NCBI GenBank assembly: GCA_964016885.1
Contig: OZ024759.1
Location: 30,318,001 to 30,382,000, forward strand
Direction: 5' to 3'
Length of the DNA: 64,000 nt
From: Eledone cirrhosa
Taxonomy: Eukaryota
Shown: piece after piece, positions 2,319 to 61,500 of the stretch
How the letters are laid out: the number at the start of each line of letters is the position of its first letter
Position numbering within the stretch: the stretch's first letter is position 1
The notes under the pieces: generated by a model
Database searches by the model: none
What the model saw: the letters and a program-made list of their open reading frames with translations, nothing else
What the model was told of the DNA's origin: nothing
Made by a program: the position numbers and the translations under genes

Positions 2319-2496
2319 AAACAAAGAAAGTGTGGTAAGGAACCGTGTACACCATAAGGCACCAGAGTACTCGATATTTAGGGTAGTAGAGTGGGTAAGA
2401 GGAAAAGGTTCAGGACACCGACGACTGAGCTCCGGTCGTTTCGACAGCTAGATCCGAACTCGGCCGGAGCGCAGCCGTCGGGGTCCTGAATCTTTT

Positions 2497-2498
<2 letters not shown>
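2319..2498. mobile_element. TA-embedded fold-back element, family A (PLE pLTR-like)
   Basis: Tail gtggtaaggaacc...gtagtagagtggg plus imperfect inverted arms ggaaaaggttcaggac.../...gtcctgaatcttttcc; TA-rich runs on both sides. Confidence 0.75.
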
Positions 2499-7285: not shown

Positions 7286-7634
7286 CAGGGTGCGGACTAT
7301 ATTTGTTCGCAAGATTACTGCCTAGGAAAAGATAACACAGTAGTTTTATTTTTTAAGATTTATTTATCAAACTTGGGTCAGTTTGTCTTCATGACTTGTT
7401 CTTTCGATCTCACTCGATAAACCCGCCATTGGCTTTGATGACGGCTTCAAGGCGGCCTCGGGACCGGCTATAGGCCTTCGTCACTGTCTCCCGATTTAGG
7501 CCCCTAAAGGCACTTGTGATCCTGGCCTTCAGATTGTCTTTCGTATTGCAGCAAGATCTGTTGGGGTCTCGTTCCACTGCGTCCCACACAAAGAAGTCGA
7601 GGGGGTTGTAGTCAGGCGAGCTGGGAGGCCAGAT
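7286..7634 (-). mobile_element. Tc1/mariner (DD37D/maT-like) transposon 3' end with transposase C-terminus (7410-7634)
   Basis: IWPPSSPDYNPLDFFVWDAVE...RLEAVIKANGGFIE*; terminus ta|cagggtgcggac at 7286. Confidence 0.85.
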
Positions 7635-7642
7635 GTATATAT

Positions 7643-7692
<50 letters not shown>

Positions 7693-8059
7693 GTGTATGT
7701 ATTATTCGTGACAGCATTCGGGAGAGTGAGGTTGTTGGTTTACAAATAGGCAAGCTGGTGGTCAGCCGCTTCACGCATTAACTAACCGGCCCCCTCCAGC
7801 GCACCTGCTACCCACACCTTCCACCATTTCTATTCAATCATTCATTATACGACATATTACACTACGTCTCAATACAGCACTAATGAAGCTGGTATGCAAT
7901 TATGAATTTCCGTCTAATTTAACTATAATTAACTAGAATTTGATCCCGATAACTGTATACGCTTGGTTAGTGGCAATTAAGTAGTTCCTGACATTGCGGG
8001 ATTGGTAACCTTAGCCACACCTGGCCATAATTATAAAATAGAATAAAACCAGTGATCAT

Positions 8060-12658: not shown

Positions 12659-12661
<3 letters not shown>

Positions 12662-12860
12662 ATAGCTTAGTGGGGTAAAAAACCAATAAGGATCTAATGA
12701 CATGTATTTCAAGCAATCCTGTTGAGTACATATTCTGACAACATAGTATATAGTCACGCTAGCTTTTCAAACTACATTCAACGCTCCTTTTTTCTTTTCT
12801 GAAGGGTGTAGGAAAGAGTCAATAGAGCATGCTTTATCATCTATTCATTAAACCTATATA
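12659..12860. repeat. ~200 bp segment duplicated at 15128-15330
   Basis: aagatagcttagtggggtaaaaaa...cattaaacctatata near-identical in both places; this copy is TA-flanked. Confidence 0.9.
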
Positions 12861-12880
12861 TATATATATATATATATATA

Positions 12881-13079
12881 GCGAGGGAAAAGTGGTAAGG
12901 AACCAGGTGGACCATAACGCACCAAAGTACTCAATACTTAGGGTAGTAGAGTGGGTAATAGGAGTAAGTAAGACCCCGACGGCTGAGCTCAAGCCGTTTC
13001 GACGGCTAATTCTGTACTGAATCAGTACAGAATTAGCCGTCGAAACGGCTTGAGCTCAGCCGTCGGGGTCTTACTTACT

Positions 13080-13084
<5 letters not shown>
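12881..13084. mobile_element. Family A fold-back element with perfect 63 bp arms
   Basis: Arms 12958-13020 and 13022-13084, 1 nt centre; contains GAAACGGCTtgagctcAGCCGTCggggtc; (TA)n both sides. Confidence 0.85.
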
Positions 13085-13141
<57 letters not shown>

Positions 13142-13146
<5 letters not shown>

Positions 13147-13290
13147 AAGTATGACCCCGACGGCAGAGCTCAAGCCGTTTCGACGGCGATTTCTGGACTG
13201 CTATTTCGCCTATTACGCACTCTACTACCCTAAGTATTGAGTACTCTGGTGCGTTATGGTCCATCTGGTTCCTTACCACAACTCCTTCGT
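13142..13290. mobile_element. Family A element, opposite orientation
   Basis: gaccccgacggcagagctcaagccgtttcg joined to the reverse-oriented tail ...ggttccttaccacaactccttcgt; TA-flanked. Confidence 0.8.
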
Positions 13291-13487
13291 TATATATATA
13301 TAGATTTACATTGTACATTTTACCATTCTGCTCTGAGGAAACGGTGGTCACAGCATTGGATATTTGAGTTCTGCAAGTACTTGTGAATTTGCACGTAGCA
13401 TAACTAGGCTGCAGTACCACCGTGGAAACACTTGTAAGCACACGGAATAAATTACCTTTTTATGATGTCTACCTGTTATTATTCATT

Positions 13488-13518
<31 letters not shown>

Positions 13519-13696
13519 ACGAAGGATATGTGGTAAGGAACCAGGTGGACCATAACGCACCAAAGTACTCAATACTTAGGGTAGTAGAGTGGGTAATAGG
13601 AACGAGTAGGACCCCGACGGCTGAGCTCAAGCCGTTTCGACGGCTAATTCTTGACTCGAAACGGCTTGAGCTCAGCCGTCGGGGTCCTACTCGTTC

Positions 13697-13697
<1 letters not shown>
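13519..13697. mobile_element. Family A fold-back element with 42 bp arms
   Basis: Arms 13599-13640 and 13656-13697; TA-flanked. Confidence 0.85.
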
Positions 13698-13759
<62 letters not shown>

Positions 13760-16014
13760 CGTGTGCATATATGTGTGTATGTATGTATGCATGTATGTAT
13801 GTATATATATAGTATAATATAGTATAGAGAGACTACCGCATGTATAAATGTATTTATCTGGTCTACATAGCTATCTATTTGTATAATTATCTGTTTACCT
13901 ACTTCTCTTCCGACTTTGGCATAAATCAATTTGTATGTTTATCTATCGATCTGTCTATCTATCTAGCTACATATATACCTACCAACCCATCTATCTACCT
14001 ATCTACCAACCCATCTATCAACCTAGCTACCTACCAAACCATCTATTTACCAATCTGTCTATCTACTTTGCTACATACCAATCTCGGTATTTTACGAACT
14101 AAGCAATGTCATGTTGAACCTCAGCAAGATATATACGGCGACATATATAGCGGCAAACAATTGACATAAATAGCTGCAAAGCATTTTTGTTCGACCCACT
14201 AAAGTTTCTGACAACTCATCGTACATAAATGGCGCCGTAACAAAGTCGCAATATAATGACTGAATACACGTTGAAAATAATACAATGTTCGTGAACCCTA
14301 CGACATGTTCGCACAAGATTCAACTTTACTGTAACCTAGATACTCTTTTCATTAAATATACTTTTTTTACTTATCAGTTAATGTAAAACTCTCAAAGCAA
14401 AATCGTTTCTGTACATGGCAGATGTCTATTTAGGGTCTAATGAGTGATTCGAGGGCATTTATTGCTAGGGCGGGAGTTACACAGCGATTAAACAAGACAT
14501 GTATTTGTATCTCTCTCCTTTTGTTAATACTATTACGAATTTCACGATGACCTATTGCGCTGTCTATTCTTTATTCATTGCATATACGCTCAGTAATATA
14601 TATATATATATTAATATATATCAACAGTGTGTGTGGACTTCTGGTAAGTGTGTTGAACTTACGATCATAATATCATGGGTTCAATTCCTGGACTGGGTTG
14701 TGTTCAAATGGAAGGTAAAAGCCAAGAAGGAAGTAAAATATCGTGTTCAATATCAATTATTGAGATTATGGGGGGGGGGGGGTATATGAGAGAGGTCTTA
14801 AACGAAATAATAGATGTCTCGGAGACGAAATCATACACACAACGGCCCCCATTTTTTAAATACAATTCTGCTTATTTAAAAGAAAAGCTTGTCATCATAA
14901 TTCTCTGCTAGAACCGTACCTAAAGTTTGTTCCAAACACCACATGACTGACTGATGAAAAAGATAGTTACAAAATCTTTTCACATTTTTAATGATTTTCA
15001 AAATCATATGTAGGTGGTGCTATTAAGATAGACATGGCCTGGGCCAATACTGGTCGAAACCTAACAAAGTGTCTTTCATTTGAAATATGGTAACGAAATG
15101 GCTTAACAGTGGAATGAGAGAACGAAGAAGATAGCTTAGTGGGGTAAAAAACAAATAATGATCTAATGACATGTATTTCAAGCAAGTCTGTTGAGTACAT
15201 ATTCTGACAACATAGTATATAGTCACACTAGCTTTTCAAACTACATTCAACGCTCCTTTTTTTCTTTTGTGGAGGGTGTAGGAAAGAGTCAATAGAGCAT
15301 GCTTTATCATCTATTCATTAAACCTATATAATAAAGGTTTTTCGACTTGTAACCTTCTATGATGTCTCGTTACAATTGCTGAAATTTCAAAGAAATTTCC
15401 TGTTTACACAATAGCTCTGCTTCACTCACGCATATCTTTAAGACGGATTGGGTGAAAAGAAACGTTTGAGAAAAGCAACCATTGATAGGTTAGAAATAAT
15501 CAAATGATTTTTGTTGCTAGGACCTACCTAGCTATGTTTTAATTACACCCTAGACTGACGACAAACTCGTGGTACTTTTAGCTGCGGTCGTAATGACTGA
15601 AAGAATACATTTGTGTAATAAACGAAAAAATACGATCACGCAATGACCGAAATAATATGATTACGAAAGAATACACCAAGAATATGGCGGCCCTACGACA
15701 CAATCAGGGGTTACAGGAACATACCATACCATATATATCTTTCTCACATCCATTCTCTCATTCTCTATCTTTCTTTGGGGTAAGACATGGGCTCCACCTG
15801 TTTTTTAAAAAATGCCATAAATTGCCGTATGTCAATATGCGCCCCCCCATACCACTCCATCAGGAGCTACGAGACCTCACCCGTCTATTTTTCACTCCCA
15901 CCTTCAATATGCCCAATCTCAAATCTTTTCTCCGCCAGCTCCATTCTACTCTAAAGACATTTTTTTCCAATTACAACCCGCCCGTCCCCTCAATCTATCT
16001 TATTTCTCATTATT

Positions 16015-16050
16015 TCTTCTGATGAAGGACTAGCGTCCGAAACGTTAAGA
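16015..16050 (+). ncRNA. Minimal type I hammerhead ribozyme motif (family D)
   Basis: tctt CTGATGA a GGAC tagc GTCC GAA ACGT T aaga; related copy on minus at ~40533-40568, degenerate copy at ~27567. Confidence 0.65.
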
Positions 16051-16139
16051 CTCTCTTCCTGTTATATCAAGCGTTAACCTAATATATCCCTTCCATATAC
16101 TGTACCGATTGTGTTGTTATTTCTGTTTACCTTTTACAT

Positions 16140-21205: not shown

Positions 21206-21408
21206 GCACGCACACACACACACGCGCGACGGTTGCAGCCTGATGATGTCCAGGGCCTCCGTACCAACTTGAACACAAAAGATCTAGGCCAAACCATATA
21301 TGTATCGAAACTTTAACATAGTATTATATATATATATATCAGAAAGGGCGTGGTAAAATACCAAGTGGACCAGTACACGGATCTAGCCGTTGGGGTCCTG
21401 AATCTTTT

Positions 21409-21443
<35 letters not shown>

Positions 21444-29327: not shown

Positions 29328-29950
29328 TGTTTCTACTTTTGGCACAAGGCCAGCAATTACCCAGTGTATTACTGGTACTTTATTCTATCGACCCCGGAAG
29401 GATGAAAGGCAAAGTTAACCTCGGCGGGTTATAATAATAATAATAATTGTTTCTACTTTAGGCACAAGGCCAGCAATTACACCAGTGCATTACTGGTACT
29501 TTATTTTATTGACCCCGTAAGGATGAAAGGCAAAGTTAACCTCAGTAAAGTCAGAACGCAAAGGGCCGTAACTCTATGCGTCAAAGCATGGCGTCCGGTC
29601 CTCTACCGATACTGCCCCCTTTAGGAGATGCTTACAGCACCTAGGTTTCCCAAGCGGTCACCCATCTAAGTACTAACTAGGCTCGACGTGGCTTAACTTC
29701 GGTGATCGGACCAGAACCGGTGTTGTCAGCGTTAATAATAGTTTCTGATTTAGGCACAAGGCCAGCAATTTGGGGAGAGGGTAAAGTCGATTAAATCTAC
29801 CCCAGTACATTACTGGTACTTTATTTTATCGACCCCGTAAGGATGAAAAGCAAAGCTAACCTCGGCGGGATTTGAACTCAGAATGTAAAGGGCCGTATTT
29901 CTATGCTGCATAGTGTCTGACGCTCTACCGATTCTGCCAATCCTTGAGCA
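29165..29950 (-). mobile_element. SINE S1 array enclosing a 5S rRNA fragment
   Basis: About four partial/full SINE units separated by (taa)n tails. Confidence 0.85.
29629..29731 (-). pseudogene. 5S rRNA pseudogene, 5'-truncated (~103 nt)
   Basis: Minus: cgctgacaacaccggttctggtccgatcaccgaagttaagccacgtcgagcctagttagtacttagatgggtgaccgcttgggaaacctaggtgctgtaagca; matches invertebrate 5S from about nt 16 to the 3' end; no poly-T terminator. Confidence 0.9.
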
Positions 29951-30292
29951 TAATAATAAGAACAGGCACAACATATGACGTTTGAGGTTAGAAACGGGTT
30001 TCATCATAGGTTTGTTAGTTTTACTCGTTTACTGTACATCCTGGGGTTAAACAACATCAACCACACACAGACACAGACGCAGACACAGACGCAGGCACTC
30101 ACACAGATGTTGCTATGCTGATAAACAACGACTAGATTTTAACAAATTTATATATTAATAAAAAAAATTAAAAAATTAAATTGTTAATTTCATTATGACA
30201 AAATATTTATTTCTTAATCTCTCATGCATATTTTAATCACATGCACTTAGTAACTTCTGTTGGAAACAAAGAACCAGAAAAGTCAGTATTTG

Positions 30293-30449
30293 GTACTAGG
30301 AATGAAAGAAAAACATAAGCTGCAGTCAACGTAGTACAAATAAAAGTTTATAGAGAAACTTGCCTCAGATAACGACTACAATTGCTCAAAGATGGTTACG
30401 ATTTGTAGGCCTTTGTTTGATAAAGAAGTAAGTAAGAAGGTATACATAA

Positions 30450-30489
<40 letters not shown>

Positions 30490-30627: not shown

Positions 30628-30668
<41 letters not shown>

Positions 30669-30824
30669 AACTTGTGTATACCTTCCTGCTTAATTCTTTA
30701 GCAACGCCCTACAAATCGTAACCATCTTTGAGCAATTGTAGTCGTTATCTTAGGCAAGTTTCTCTATAAACGTTTATTTGTACTACGTTGACTCCGGCTT
30801 ATGTTTTGCTTTCATTCCTAGTAC
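30293..30824. repeat. Inverted repeat, ~160 bp arms around a (TA)n-flanked spacer
   Basis: gtactaggaatgaaag...gtatacataagttt versus aaacttgtgtatac...ctttcattcctagtac. Confidence 0.9.
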
Positions 30825-30825
30825 G

Positions 30826-30892
<67 letters not shown>

Positions 30893-35191: not shown

Positions 35192-35238
35192 CTTCCTGGT
35201 GATTTCTCACGAATGAAACAGTTCTAGTCCCGTAGAAG
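35192..35238 (+). ncRNA. Hammerhead-like motif, family C (core variant CTGGTGA)
   Basis: cttc CTGGTGA t ttc tcac gaa t GAA ACAG ttctagtc CCGT A gaag; partial inverted copy at ~35316-35361. Confidence 0.5.
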
Positions 35239-35405
35239 CTCTTCTATATTAATATATATATATAGAAAGTTATATTGGATTCTCCGTTTCTTATGTGATA
35301 TATATACATATATATTAAATATAGGAATGGCTTCTACAGGACTAGAACTGTTTAATTCGAAGGACATCACTCTGCAATGTATTGAGTTGAGTGCCCGGGA
35401 CACAA

Positions 35406-35437
<32 letters not shown>

Positions 35438-36253
35438 GAGTGTGTGCCTATTTCTTTTATTGCAGGAATTAATTCACTATAAATATATTTAGATAATTAA
35501 CACAGTGATTAGCAATTAGAAGATTTTTGCATTTTCATTTTTGATTATCGCAGCAGCTTAATTTTTGTTATTCCAGTAAAAAAAAAAAAAAAATTAGAAA
35601 TATAAATAAATAAATCATAGGAATTAAAACAAAGAAAGAAGAAAACGAAAGAAGATCTAAGTATGCTGATTATGGAAACTGAATCCAAATTTGATTTAGA
35701 ATATGTTCATTAAGGTAACAAGCTCTGCTAGAAGGCTTTCTCTACACTAAAATTGTAATTATCGTCAGGAAACATTATATTTAAATCTGTAAATGACTCT
35801 TGGGTTGGGAAACGATATTTAAATCTGAATAACGCTTATAGATTCTTAATGGCGGACATGGACAGAGAAAATTCGTTCCAAATGTTTGTAGGCGGCTATT
35901 TCGTTGTGAAGATGACATACACGCATCAGTCTTGGAACTGGAATAGCATATAAGCGGAGCGGAGCTATTTAACAGAGAACAATATCATATTGAGCAGGGA
36001 TGAGAAGTAAGAAAAAAACAAAGGACATGAAAAGAAGAAAAAGAGAAATAGCAGTGCCCCAACATGACCTCAGCCTGTCGACTGGAACACGTAAAAGATT
36101 AATAGAGTAATAGAGAAAAGGATCAAGCAACGAACAAAAGGTCAAATTGTCAAAGGCGAATTGTCGGACTCGATAGAATGTCGGATAGAATGCTTTGTGT
36201 TGTTCATTTCGGCTCTCTGCTCTCTCCCTCTCTCTCTCCGTCTCTCTCTCTCG

Positions 36254-36349
<96 letters not shown>

Positions 36350-36351
<2 letters not shown>

Positions 36352-36960
36352 TCATACACTGCCCGGGCGTCACTGACCTGTGGGGCTATGTAGAACGACT
36401 ATTGTCGCGGGTGGGACCAATCCAGTTGACCACCGAGTCCATTGTCATGATCAAACCGCCACCCTCCTTCAAAAACGAAGGAGAGGTGGTTTTCCTTTGT
36501 GTGATAGCTATGGCGAAAGAGGTTGTATGGTGGACAAGGTTGAAAGGGCTGAGGTCAGACACCTTTCTCTCCGGCCAACAACTGATTCTTTTTTTCAAAT
36601 ACCACTTTGGAAGAAGAATCAGGATGGAGAGAGAGGTGCTGTACCCCAGCAAGTTTTATGAAAGGTGGGTGAAAGTGGCGAGAATGGCCCGAGTGAATGG
36701 GCCTTCTCTCTATATCAGCCTGTAGGTTGAGGAAAAGGAGGAGGAGAGGAAAGGAGTACAAGCTCTTCGTACTCCTGGAGATGAGGGTTGCACATTTTTT
36801 TTCGGGGGTATGTGTTACCCATATAAACTGTCTCCCTCTATTGGGGAAAATCGACTAACTTTTAAATTCCATCTGTGATAACATTTTACACGTTTTTATT
36901 GTATGTAAACTTCCCCCTTTGTATTTGTCCCCTTCTTTTGTGCCCGTGGCTAATAAAGAA
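36350..36960 (+). mobile_element. L1/Tx1-like LINE 3' end (ORF2 C-terminus to 36725 plus 3' UTR)
   Basis: FIHCPGVTDLW...AMAKEVVWWTR...F.ERW pattern typical of the region after the CCHC finger; aataaa at ~36952. Confidence 0.7.
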
Positions 36961-39426: not shown

Positions 39427-39465
39427 ATATATATATATGTGTATATATATATATGTGTATATAAT

Positions 39466-39735
39466 ATAAGATCAAAAGATGGTTAAAGGAGTTCCATATA
39501 TTTTATTATGCGCATTTCAAAAACAAACATCATCATGCAATAATATTTGTGTTTTCATCAGATAAAATAGGAGAACATGATATGAAGGCTAAAAAACACT
39601 TGTGGATAGTGCAGTTTTAAATCAACATATCTTTTGATCTTATATTATGCATACTCCAGTCCCACAAATTGTAGAGTGCTTCTTATCCGATATCTGCATT
39701 GCTTTATTGTACTACAATAAAACTCACCTCCTACA
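39466..39735. mobile_element. TA-embedded fold-back element, family B, ~17 bp arms
   Basis: tataagatcaaaagat / atcttttgatcttata plus tail ...caataaaactcacctcc; homologous to the 45486 and 57953 copies. Confidence 0.85.
39499..39569 (-). ncRNA. Type I hammerhead ribozyme (family B)
   Basis: tattttat CTGATGA aaac..stem II..tttt GAA ATGCGCAT A ataaaata. Confidence 0.8.
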
Positions 39736-40422: not shown

Positions 40423-41124
40423 CATCATAAATGAATGTGTGTGTGTTTGCATAAAGTTTTCAAAAATATAGCAAACGACACAGTACAATGAAGAAATATA
40501 TTAGTTGAACAGTTGAAATAATAGGAAAACAGTGTTAACGTTTCGGACACTAGTCATTCACCAGAAGATAAAAAGACAAATAAAAAGACAAATAAAGGAT
40601 GAAATAGAAAGATAGAGTGAGAAGAGGAAGAAACGGAAAATAAATGAGAGAGAAACACACGAGAGTATTTATAGATGTGTGTATATATCTATCTATATAT
40701 ATATAAATAAAGTTAGTCCTTCATCAGTGATCTTCCAACCATCATTGGTATTTCATCGCTTTAAAGACCATATACCTCCGGCTGGTGCGAGCAACGGCTA
40801 AAAATAGTCGTTGGGACACGTAAATAAAGGGGACACGAGAGTGTAAACAAACAAAAATGGTGAAGCAACGAAAAGTGAGGAAAAAAGAATCAAGTCCCAA
40901 ATTTCCATGAATATAAGTTCGGTGAAATCGTGAACTAGAGAGTATATATATATATATTCACACTATTACTCAAAACAGTACTTGTTACTTGAGGTAGTAG
41001 AGTATGGCTATATTATAATGAGTCGGATCCCGACGGCTGAGCTCTTGCCGTTTCAACAAGAACTAACTTACCCTCTTTTACCTGTTCCAGCCATCCTGGG
41101 GCACCGCCTTTATATAAATATATA

Positions 41125-41325
41125 TATATATATGAAATTTAAAAGTTTATATACATATAAACTAGACAGAGCTATAGATACATATATATATATATATTAA
41201 TTAATTAAATAATTTAATTAATTCGTCATTGAGCCACACCGTGAATGGTTGCCAAAAACATATATATATGTATCTATAGCTCTGTCTAGTTTATATGTAT
41301 ATAAACTTTTAAATTTGATATACTC
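41125..41325. repeat. Inverted repeat, ~60 bp arms
   Basis: aaatttaaaagtttatatacatataaactagacagagctatagatacatatata and its reverse complement. Confidence 0.9.
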
Positions 41326-44267: not shown

Positions 44268-44381
44268 ACGAAGGAAATGTGGTAAGGAACCAGATAGACC
44301 ATAACGCACCAAAGTACTCAATACTTAGGGTAGTAGAAGGGTAATAGGCTTGAGCTCTGCCGTCGGGGTCATAGTTGTTCC
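44268..44381. mobile_element. Family A element, short inversion variant (fragments also near 21340-21410, 40958-41060, 46580-46640, 53190-53237)
   Basis: Tail acgaaggaaatgtggtaaggaacc... joined to the inverted ggcttgagctctgccgtcggggtc. Confidence 0.8.
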
Positions 44382-45366: not shown

Positions 45367-45485
45367 GTATCTATATGTATATGTGTATATATATGTGTAT
45401 GTACATGTCTGTACATGTCTGTATACACACATATATACGTAAATACATACGTACATACATTATATATATATATATATATATATAA

Positions 45486-45798
45486 TATAAGATCAAAAGA
45501 TGGTTAAAAGAGTTCCATGTATTTTATTATGCGCATTTAAAAAACAAATATCATCATGCAATAACATTTGCGTTTTCGTCAGATAAAATAGGGAGACATG
45601 ATATGAAGGTTAAAACACACTTGTGAATAGTGCAGTTTTGAATCAACATATCAATGAAATGCGCATAATAAAATACATGGAACTCTTTTAACCATCTTTT
45701 GATCTTATATATTATTTATACTCCAGTCCTACAAACTGTAGAGTGCTACTTATCCGATATCTGCATTGCTATATTGTACTACAATAAAACTCACATCC

Positions 45799-45802
<4 letters not shown>
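45486..45802. mobile_element. Family B fold-back element, ~53 bp arms; minus-strand hammerhead 45520-45590 with GAAA>TAAA
   Basis: tataagatcaaaagatggttaaaagagttccatgtattttattatgcgcattt and its reverse complement; CTGACGA core. Confidence 0.85.
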
Positions 45803-46169: not shown

Positions 46170-46636
46170 ATACATCAATGATGAGGAAATGACAAGATCT
46201 TCGGTTAAGCCACATCCTGTGTACCATGGAAGCCTTCCTGAATTAACAGCTAAACTTTACAGTAATACAAACTAATATAAAGAACAGAATATAAAGAAAC
46301 GATGCACAGACGTTGGTCTAGCATGATCTCATCATTCAGTTCTAACGACGGTCGGCTGAGAAGTTCATAAGAGTGGTGGATGCTAGAGCTGTGAAATCAT
46401 GCATGCATTAACTTCAACCTTTCATATTAATAACTGCATTGTTTCTTTCCAGGGATTACTCTCGTGTATCGGATAATCGTAACCTGACCTCCATATGTCT
46501 AATTTTAGTGTAATCCTCCTCACTGCTTGATAATTTGATCGCTTACATAGTGAAAGCTGTCAACAACTTTATGTATATATAAAGAAAATCAGGACCTCGA
46601 CGGCTGAGCTCCGGCCGTTTCGACAGCTAGATCCGA

Positions 46637-46670
<34 letters not shown>

Positions 46671-50622: not shown

Positions 50623-50771
50623 ATTCCTGGTGATTTCTAATGAATGAAACAGTTCTAGTCCTGTAGAAGTAATTTCTATGGGAAATAAATATGTACCTTC
50701 TCTAATAATATATTGGGGACCTTATTTCACTGTGGTTCTATTGTGTTCCACTTTAGAAAACCATTCTTAAT

Positions 50772-50837
<66 letters not shown>

Positions 50838-50972
50838 ACATAGAAAAGGCTTCTACAGGACTAGAAGTGTTTCATTTGGGAGAAATCATCAGGAAGCCCT
50901 TATGATTTCCCTGTAGATTTCTTCCGAATGAAACAGTTCTAGTCCTGTAGAAGCCTTTTCTATATTAAATAT
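50623..50972. ncRNA. Three family C hammerhead-like motifs (50623-50669 +, 50848-50898 -, 50905-50955 +); the last two form an inverted repeat
   Basis: Minus copy: ggcttc CTGATGA tttctcccaaat GAA ACA cttctagtcc TGT A gaagcc. Confidence 0.6.
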
Positions 50973-51035
50973 TTACACTCTGATTTGTATTGAGTAACTT
51001 ACTTAATGTAGTTACCCCCCATTGAACCTGGGAGA

Positions 51036-53179: not shown

Positions 53180-53260
53180 GTATATATATATAGGAAAAAG
53201 TATGGTCCATCTGGTTCCTTACCACATTTCCTTGGTTATATATATATATATATATATTTA

Positions 53261-57959: not shown

Positions 57960-57995
57960 AAGAAGAAATTAAAAGATATTTAAAAAAGTTCCATG

Positions 57996-58066
57996 TATTT
58001 TATTATGCGCATTTCAAAAACAAATATCATCCAGGGACGATATTTGCGTTCTCATCAGATAAAATA
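57996..58066 (-). ncRNA. Type I hammerhead ribozyme (family B, inverted arm)
   Basis: Reverse complement of 58145-58217 apart from a shorter T run. Confidence 0.85.
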
Positions 58067-58144
58067 GGGAGACATGATATGAAGCTTAAAAAAGACACTA
58101 CTTTGCTCACAAGTGTCTTTTTTAAGCTTCATATCATGTCTCCC

Positions 58145-58217
58145 TATTTTATCTGATGAGAACGCAAATATCGTCCCTGGATGATATTTGTTTTTTTGAA
58201 ATGCGCATAATAAAATA
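58145..58217 (+). ncRNA. Type I hammerhead ribozyme (family B)
   Basis: Stem I tattttat/ataaaata; CTGATGA; stem II caaatatcgtc/gatgatatttg; GAA; palindromic stem III ATGCGCAT; AUA cleavage triplet. Confidence 0.85.
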
Positions 58218-58334
58218 CATGGAACTTTTTGAACCATCTTTTAATTTCTTCTTATATATACTCCAGTCCAATAAACTGTTGAGTGCTACTTATCCGATAT
58301 TTGCATTGCTTTATTGTGCTACAATAAAACTCAC

Positions 58335-58403
<69 letters not shown>

Positions 58404-60274: not shown

Positions 60275-60600
60275 TATAAGGAAAAAAGATGAAATTTGAA
60301 AATGCAACTGGAGTCTTTTTTTAAATATTTATTTGGTTCCTTTACCGGTTTTGCAGTTCTTGTGCTTTTCAAAATTAGAATTGAGATGGAGGGTTTGTGG
60401 TTTTTCTCGCAAACCACAAACCCTCCATCTCAATTCTACTTTTGAAAAGCACAAGAACTGCAAAACCGGTACAGGAACCAAATAAATATTTTAAAAAAGT
60501 CTCCAGTTGCATTTTCGATTTCATCTTTTTTCCTTATACTTTCACACGTGTGGCACATCTTGTTTTTTTTTCATTTTGTAAATAAACCCAACTTTCTAAT
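60275..60600. mobile_element. TA-embedded fold-back element, ~128 bp arms (60275-60403 / 60411-60538) plus tail
   Basis: Near-perfect arms; degenerate hammerhead-like ttgaaaa gca caagaac tgc aaa ACCGGT A. Confidence 0.75.
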
Positions 60601-61293: not shown

Positions 61294-61297
<4 letters not shown>

Positions 61298-61499
61298 TGG
61301 GTAATAGGAACCAGTAAGACCCCGACAGCTGAGCTCAAGCCGTTTCGACGGCTAATTCTGGCCGTCCAGAATTAGCCGTCGAAACGGCTTGAGCTCAGCT
61401 GTCGGGGTCTTACTGGTTCCTATTACCCACTCTACTACCTCAAGTATTGAGTACTTTGGTGCGTTATGGTCCACCTGGTTCCTTACCACATTTCCTTCG

Positions 61500-61500
<1 letters not shown>
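61294..61500. mobile_element. Family A fold-back element with perfect 68 bp arms
   Basis: Arms 61294-61361 and 61366-61433, then tail into (TA)n. Confidence 0.9.

Follow-up and report, generated by a model that had tools for sequence, protein, structure and literature searches.

Family A, a short repeat that occupies 1288 bp, or 2.0%, of the 64,000-nucleotide stretch of Eledone cirrhosa DNA analysed here (the window), probably consists of stubs left when the 3' end of a Penelope-like element (PLE) was inserted, with copying that would start at two fixed sites and stop inside a hammerhead ribozyme. BLAST and inspection recovered ten insertions. The window is animal-type DNA of 21-41% G+C in 2-kb bins and is rich in (TA)n runs and short repeats, including SINE-like repeats that we presume to be akin to octopod SINEs. 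The initial annotation had described three neighboring family-A elements, and these are indeed found at 12881-13081 (E1), 13143-13291 (E2), and 13519-13699 (E3), with (TA)n runs on both sides. Most family-A insertions sit in (TA)n, and seven of the ten consist of two oppositely oriented pieces. A family-specific pattern for the half-hammerhead matched ten times in the window and never in 100 shuffles, a comparison that is partly circular because the pattern was derived from the copies themselves. A generic scan for GAAAC, a 5-bp stem, and GTC likewise matched ten times; each of 20 block shuffles of the window yielded 0-3. Family A is also very abundant in public reads. Positions of all pieces are collected in Table 1.

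The motif shared by these copies had been read as the 3' half of a hammerhead. The pairing of stem III, the palindromic loop, and a PLE-like distance to the element end all bear this out, with type I as the matching class, and we consider a hammerhead origin very likely. In an alignment of 12 arms, all 57 stem III cells are paired, a compensatory change occurs once, and two rows have a G-U pair; the covariation is weak, being equaled by 39 of 500 shuffles. Stem III counts from a relaxed scan were inflated by palindromic loops and are left out. A 6-bp stem III had been proposed. Five pairs with a 9-nt loop are common to the subfamilies, while the sixth pair varies. In subfamilies that differ by about 20%, 11 of 12 arms retain the palindrome GAGCTC in the loop, and its flanks vary. 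GAAA, stem III, and an NUH site are present in ten arms, and stems I and II are represented in the window by their 3' strands only. PLE hammerheads are described with palindromic loops 3 and a conserved C before GAAA in the available parts of one study (PMC4209133), and those of the Hydra clade with 4-bp stems III after (c/t)gaa and a preference for (TA)n in part of a supplement (PMC8557442). As far as the accessible portions of these two papers extend, family A resembles PLE type I hammerheads in the C before GAAA (position 11.1), the order GAAAC...GTC, the palindromic loop 3, and the (TA)n setting. It differs from them in having no 5' core and no 5' strand of stem I or stem II, and its stem III with loop is longer than most metazoan cases covered there (PMC4209133).

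A second hairpin competes for the same bases. This rival hairpin, which covers GAAA, is paired in 44 of 45 cells and shows no compensatory change; the lone compensatory change, located in the long arm of the insertion at 2320-2498, preserves stem III and disrupts the competitor. In single long arms of the A type, the competing hairpin hides GAAA with a predicted probability of 0.40-0.74. Minimum free energy folds of single arms are not more stable than those of shuffles (z 0.05 to 1.9). Rfam reported no hammerhead in the window among the 150 matches listed of 683, nor on the E3 arm, a blank that is uninformative because the complete hammerheads of families B and E, described below, escape Rfam as well. 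A type II hammerhead with its core downstream in the tail was considered and rejected, as by eye no matching stem II strand follows. The short arms of E1 and E2 (13022-13200) lie tail to tail across (TA)30 and can form a larger hairpin, which accounts for spurious matches to miRNA families in Rfam.

The absence of CTGANGA had also been pointed out, and the sequence CTG(A/G)NGA occurs in none of ten arms within the 60 nt scanned upstream. With the upstream core absent, the family-A copies are not ribozymes. Three sister families in the window, all carrying complete type I motifs, served as controls. The family B hammerhead has an 8-bp stem I, a long AU-rich stem II, and a palindromic TGCGCA, and is followed by a tail of about 80 nt. 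The family D hammerhead has a 3-bp stem II and a 4-bp stem III around CTAG, and its arms start a few bases upstream of the core. The family E motif has 4-bp stems I and II and an ACGT stem III. The TA-flanked inverted layout is common to families B and D. Nine of the 12 arms of the three families keep the core (six strictly as CTGANGA and three as CTGGTGA), whereas 0 of 10 family-A arms do (Fisher test, p = 0.0005 when arms are counted and 0.0014 when insertions are), which indicates core loss beyond random truncation in family A; the cores in families D and E are, however, easier to reach, lying only 19-20 nt upstream. One family B arm (45656) likewise starts at GAAA. The CTGGTGA cores (35196, 50627, and 40564) make up three of the nine cores, belong to two families, and share an A to G change at one core position, for which editing of the template RNA might be a cause.

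Table 1. Family-A pieces and sister-family insertions in the window
Feature	Positions	Strand	Remarks
E1: tail, long arm, and inverted short arm, between (TA)n runs	12881..13081	.	
E1 one-sided tail, about 80 nt, AC-rich in RNA sense	12881..12958	-	TA loose ends of reads before 12882
E1 second fixed outer end, CCTA in RNA sense, about 17 nt past cut	12959..12962	-	TA loose ends of reads before 12958 and 12967
E1 putative stem I 3' strand, GGGGTC in RNA sense	12972..12977	-	Partner strand absent
E1 long-arm hammerhead 3' half: GAAAC, 5-bp stem III, palindromic GAGCTC loop, GTC site	12978..13000	-	
E1 putative stem II 3' strand and loop	13001..13022	-	Zone where most arms stop
E1 inverted short arm	13022..13081	+	Hammerhead half at 13042-13064
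E2 inverted short arm	13143..13200	-	Hammerhead half at 13159-13181
E2 tail-only piece	13209..13291	+	Begins at second start site
E3 tail and long arm	13519..13656	-	Hammerhead half at 13616-13638; stop 18 nt before GAAA
E3 inverted short arm	13656..13699	+	Hammerhead half at 13658-13680; start 2 nt before GAAA
Family-A insertion, subfamily A'	2320..2498	.	Arms differ at 5 of 34 sites
A' insertion: tail piece and inverted arm	21335..21409	.	
Diverged family-A arm	40977..41066	-	Head joined to another repeat
Family-A tail-only piece and inverted short arm	44268..44381	.	No overlap (E2 type)
Lone A' short arm	46583..46638	-	Ends 17 nt before GAAA at a (CA)n run
Family-A tail fragment	53194..53237	.	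(TA)n runs on either side
Palindromic family-A insertion	61294..61500	.	68-bp arms, 4-nt spacer
Family B: TA-flanked head-to-head PLE-like stubs, whole type I hammerhead	39464-39734, 45485-45801, 57968-58337		
Family D: short PLE-like arms, Hydra-clade-like hammerhead	35193-35383, 50624-50680, 50850-50975		
Family E: minimal hammerhead in a repeat of about 110 bp	16009-16055, 40472-40583		Motifs at 16019 and 40544

Other repeats were seen in the same DNA. A near-perfect palindrome with arms of about 110 bp and a 7-nt loop lies at 60281-60520, with no hammerhead motif seen in it, and TA-flanked inverted repeat pairs at 30290-30453 with 30668-30827 and at 41135-41316 are possibly other PLE-like ends. 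A 197-bp repeat, with 96% identical copies at 12659-12854 and 15128-15324, is TA-flanked in its first copy and there stands directly upstream of E1. A 5S rRNA-like sequence at 29629-29740 on the minus strand (64 bits) has a degraded 5' end and lies beside SINE-like repeats. Frames at 7413-7739 (minus strand) and 36189-36722 (plus strand), which gave no Pfam hit, bear a resemblance to remnants of a mariner transposase and a LINE C-terminus.

The outer ends of the arms are fixed. In RNA sense, the long arms extend 97, 97, 97, and 101 nt beyond the putative cut. Four of the short arms end 16-18 nt past it, and the other two meet (TA)n at 43 and 74 nt. The outer end of the E1 tail, at 97 nt, would mark where reverse transcription first starts, and the CCTA end would be the second start. 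The short arm of the insertion at 61294 continues into a (GA)n target; this single copy hints that the choice of start depends in part on the target sequence. At their heads the arms meet within the insertion, and the inner junction is different in every copy. The inner stop falls 14-22 nt upstream of GAAA in 8 of 12 arms and at 11, 2, -4, and -5 in the others; for the diverged arm at 40977, BLAST places the stop at 3. The longer copies had been said to break in stem II, and the clustering of 8 of 12 breakpoints in the putative stem II zone agrees with this. A long stem II hairpin had further been suggested as the site where cDNA synthesis stalls or switches template. The window holds only the 3' strand of that putative hairpin. 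Stem II may cause the stop, and an RNA 5' end near -20 would fit equally. In family D, too, short arms begin near the hammerhead, and what sets the stop may therefore be a length limit or the 5' end of the RNA instead of stem II.

Sequencing reads were compared with the stretch 12881-13030, where depth is not a copy number. Run X1 placed 17,870 of 17.1 million contigs on it, the RAD-seq run X21 placed 23,431 of 12.5 million reads, and X4 placed 37; run X15, presumed to be RNA, placed none on these positions and gives no evidence on expression. In three of the four runs (X1, X21, and X4) there are (TA)n loose ends at both fixed ends. Opposite-strand joints account for 13 of the 15 joints listed (17 in total), with head-side breaks at 13002-13027, and 5 of these 13 start at 12960-12963, at the second fixed end. 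The main X1 loose end beyond -22 (65 contigs, agreement 0.51) mirrors stem II and GAAAC and holds no core; mirror-image reads of this sort are indistinguishable from fold-back. A loose end of the A' subfamily (1397 reads, agreement 0.7) also lacks a core. Within the window it comes close to the A' tail alone, at 10 of 11 letters, and it may be the junction of a head-to-tail tandem (pseudo-LTR). We rejected it as a wobble-paired natural stem II strand, as no core precedes it and it is perhaps derived from the tail. An upstream core was found neither in the window nor among the 18 loose ends listed of 332. Read ends of X21 at 13011 and 13022 were discarded as element ends, being presumed AATT sites of the RAD-seq library; reads apparently cut at AATT in this zone (7224 and 715 read ends) imply that rare longer copies would escape.

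These observations raise the possibility that the core was never there to be lost. Family A might be a short non-autonomous element that depends on PLEs and has a master RNA starting some 20 nt upstream of GAAA, always without the core. Its copies would then be almost complete, and the half would be retained as a signal for folding or protein binding. We judge this unlikely, yet deserving of serious consideration. It would account for the core contrast with the sister arms and its absence from the listed loose ends, for head-side read joints that all fall at 13002-13027 (on a stretch that ended at 13030), and for the retention of the GAGCTC loop across subfamilies. The accessible parts of two reports also describe PLEs without canonical hammerheads that amplify well (PMC8557442) and an anole PLE that needs no cleavage in vitro (PMC11167929). 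However, the breakpoints are scattered from -22 to +5 and not fixed, and a master ribozyme working in each subfamily would more readily explain why diverged subfamilies conserve GAAAC, stem III, and GTC. Rare longer copies would moreover be missed, given the few loose ends listed and the probable AATT cutting in the zone of interest.

How the two arms of an insertion came together can be read from their overlap. Two perfect palindromes had been claimed among the three neighbors. E1 is one, spanning 12958-13084 with 63-bp arms on either side of a 1-nt spacer (13021). In E3, a 15-nt spacer separates inverted arms of 42 bp, and E2 combines an inverted arm with a tail, two pieces without overlap and with a 9-nt slip-like insert (13200-13208) between them. 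In E2 and in the insertion at 44268-44381, the tail piece stops at the second start and the inverted arm begins there. In the inverted arm at 21335-21409, the block from GAAA to stem III has been deleted between two direct repeats. Arm pairs within one insertion are identical over 34 nt in three of the four two-armed copies, with five differences in the fourth, while insertions differ from each other at at least three sites (median 9 of 34; 62 pairs). Arms that are identical within and different between insertions argue for one template per event; the 5 of 34 differing sites at 2320-2498 count against a single template.

Fold-back or template switching had been invoked for the inverted arms. 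In its strict form, every inverted arm would arise by self-priming, with the cDNA copying stem II, folding back, and being extended. The X1 loose end behind 13022, which mirrors stem II and GAAAC, looks as such a product should, and the identical arms of E1, E3, and 61294-61500 agree with it; junction palindromes were so interpreted in the available part of an earlier study (PMC3846280). As an account of all copies we find it doubtful. The inverted arms of E2, 44268-44381, and 21335-21409 hold sequence that the other piece lacks, therefore they are not fold-back copies, and the short arm ends at a fixed site. Self-priming can explain part of the palindromic copies in a manner compatible with our main explanation. 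The E2-type copies, judged by their sequence, suggest that both target strands primed synthesis on a single RNA, and not fold-back only.

The preferred reading, PLE stubs copied from two starts, draws on a known mode of insertion. Published PLE insertions, in the parts of the reports available, carry an inverted 5'-truncated copy, an optional one-sided tail, and a (TA)n bias (PMC8557442, PMC3846280, PMC8969392). Family A shows an inverted truncated copy placed head to head, a one-sided tail with two fixed ends, and a (TA)n or AT-rich bias; a partial head-to-tail tandem is found at none of its insertions in the window. The excerpts on endonuclease-bearing PLEs (PMC8557442, PMC3846280) match it in head-to-head arms, palindromic junctions, one-sided tail, (TA)n, and extreme 5' truncation, but there the tail is 30-40 nt, against about 80 nt in family A. 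Unlike those insertions, family A has no ORF seen in it, and every arm examined stops inside the hammerhead. The Poseidon PLE of Anolis carolinensis, PAc, encodes a protein that cuts and extends both target strands and prefers AT-rich DNA, as set out in the accessible sections of the report (PMC11167929). Its two starts, in an AC-rich stretch, lie 85-92 nt past the hammerhead cut by our subtraction from the values of 111-118 and 26 given there. PAc and family A are alike in having two fixed starts downstream of the hammerhead, an AC-rich stretch, AT-rich targets, use of both strands, and an outer start about 90-100 nt past the cut. They differ in that the PAc tail lies in the ORF start and its hammerhead is whole, whereas the family-A starts are 80 nt apart and the open frame has no homolog among the proteins searched (PMC11167929, same sections).

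Counting against a PLE origin, no copy ties family A to a reverse transcriptase. Pfam found neither a reverse transcriptase nor a GIY-YIG domain in the 140 longest of the 194 ORFs in the window, an absence that stubs would be expected to show, and the open frame through a family-A element had no phmmer hit among 1.84 billion proteins. The tail as the start of a PLE ORF was rejected, with 0 phmmer hits and a frame that by eye is broken in two other copies. Animal non-LTR retrozymes are, in the portions of the sources available (PMC7229834; bioRxiv 10.64898/2026.07.22.740005), similarly short, non-coding, PLE-related, and hammerhead-bearing, but they are head-to-tail tandems with whole ribozymes. 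We rejected a retrozyme assignment, as all ten insertions in the window are single or inverted and none has a core.

Under the PLE reading, a reverse transcriptase/GIY-YIG protein encoded elsewhere would cut both strands of a (TA)n target. Priming from one target strand would begin about 97 nt beyond the ribozyme cut and priming from the other about 17 nt beyond it, in most cases with a single RNA as template for both. The two cDNAs would then head towards the RNA 5' end and arrest, or snap back, in the G+C-rich stem II region, and their ends would be joined head to head, sharing 0-3 nt at the joint. A long cDNA stopping at the second start would give the E2 arrangement, and one running past it a palindrome, as in E1 and E3. 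The template would probably come from rarer, longer copies with a whole hammerhead, and the half-hammerhead would be a by-product without catalytic function.

A variant that combines a core-less master with a partner is improbable in our estimation. The master RNA of such a split-ribozyme parasite would have lost the catalytic half of its hammerhead and retained the substrate half alone, and it would be mobilized, and perhaps cut in trans, by the protein and whole ribozyme of an autonomous PLE. We regard as very unlikely the proposal that family A is a self-similar hairpin array (ACGGC / GCCGT / ACGGC) ending a DNA element of the Helitron/Helentron or MITE type. The near-complete pairing of the competing hairpin, the weak covariation of stem III, and the missing core can be read that way. 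Helitron ends follow a TC...CTRR rule, and constant termini of the MITE or Helitron type (terminal inverted repeats or TC...CTRR) were not found in family A. The ends are not inverted copies of each other, the tail being one-sided, and the inner junction varies. Sister families of like layout carry whole hammerheads, and the single compensatory change keeps stem III at the expense of the other hairpin.

The initial annotation also speculated that transcripts of the halves could be cleaved in trans. Extended to a genome-wide RNA-cleavage system, with the halves as substrates of full-length-copy transcripts, the idea strikes us as highly improbable. What remains corresponds exactly to the substrate strand of an I/II-format hammerhead, an established topology, and it exists in very many copies; trans-cleavage by a Schistosoma hammerhead is mentioned in the available text of one paper (PMC2837043). 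Two stem III halves could also pair through the palindromic loop (predicted duplex -32.1 kcal/mol versus -7.8 kcal/mol for the monomer). However, no enzyme strand was found in the window or the listed loose ends, folding predictions place the half inside long duplexes (-107 to -135 kcal/mol) in E1 and E3 transcripts, whichever strand is read, and the competing hairpin is predicted to hide GAAA in single A-type long arms. PLE hammerheads, in the portions available, cut poorly in vitro or only with protein (PMC11167929, PMC4209133). The claim of cleavable transcripts is unsupported, with no enzyme strand at hand and the half in E1 and E3 predicted to be locked in duplex.

Fold-back reads can create perfect palindromes, and the read joints do not span the E1 and E3 junctions themselves, but that the palindromes are assembly artifacts is scarcely credible, given junctions that all differ, unique spacers in E3 and 61294-61500, fixed outer ends, and opposite-strand joints at 13 listed places in independent short reads and contigs.

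Family A is likely a new and very abundant PLE family, with an insertion layout that is itself already published. The literature, as far as titles and abstract openings go and with subscription journals, Repbase, and Dfam outside its scope, gave no account of family A or of PLE truncation inside the hammerhead. Four family-A 13-mers did not occur in the supplements of PMC8557442 and PMC13282606, where line breaks could mask a match and the Zenodo repeat library of PMC13282606 fell outside the comparison. A pattern scan of viral contigs gave no match. The 13 microbial matches (0 and then 7 in metagenomes, 6 in prokaryote genomes) were dismissed as unrelated chance matches without tail or core. 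For context only, a supplement row in the accessible part of PMC13282606 lists PLEs as 6.83% of the Octopus vulgaris assembly.

Ribozyme-less copies fill about 2% of a region here, which bears on the need of PLE hammerheads for insertion. A single abundant family with both overlapping and non-overlapping copies makes two-strand priming and self-priming countable against each other across the genome. If the master itself lacks the core, family A would be a new type of PLE parasite; and under the split-ribozyme reading, its non-overlapping copies would be genome-scale evidence for two-strand priming by PLEs on one RNA.
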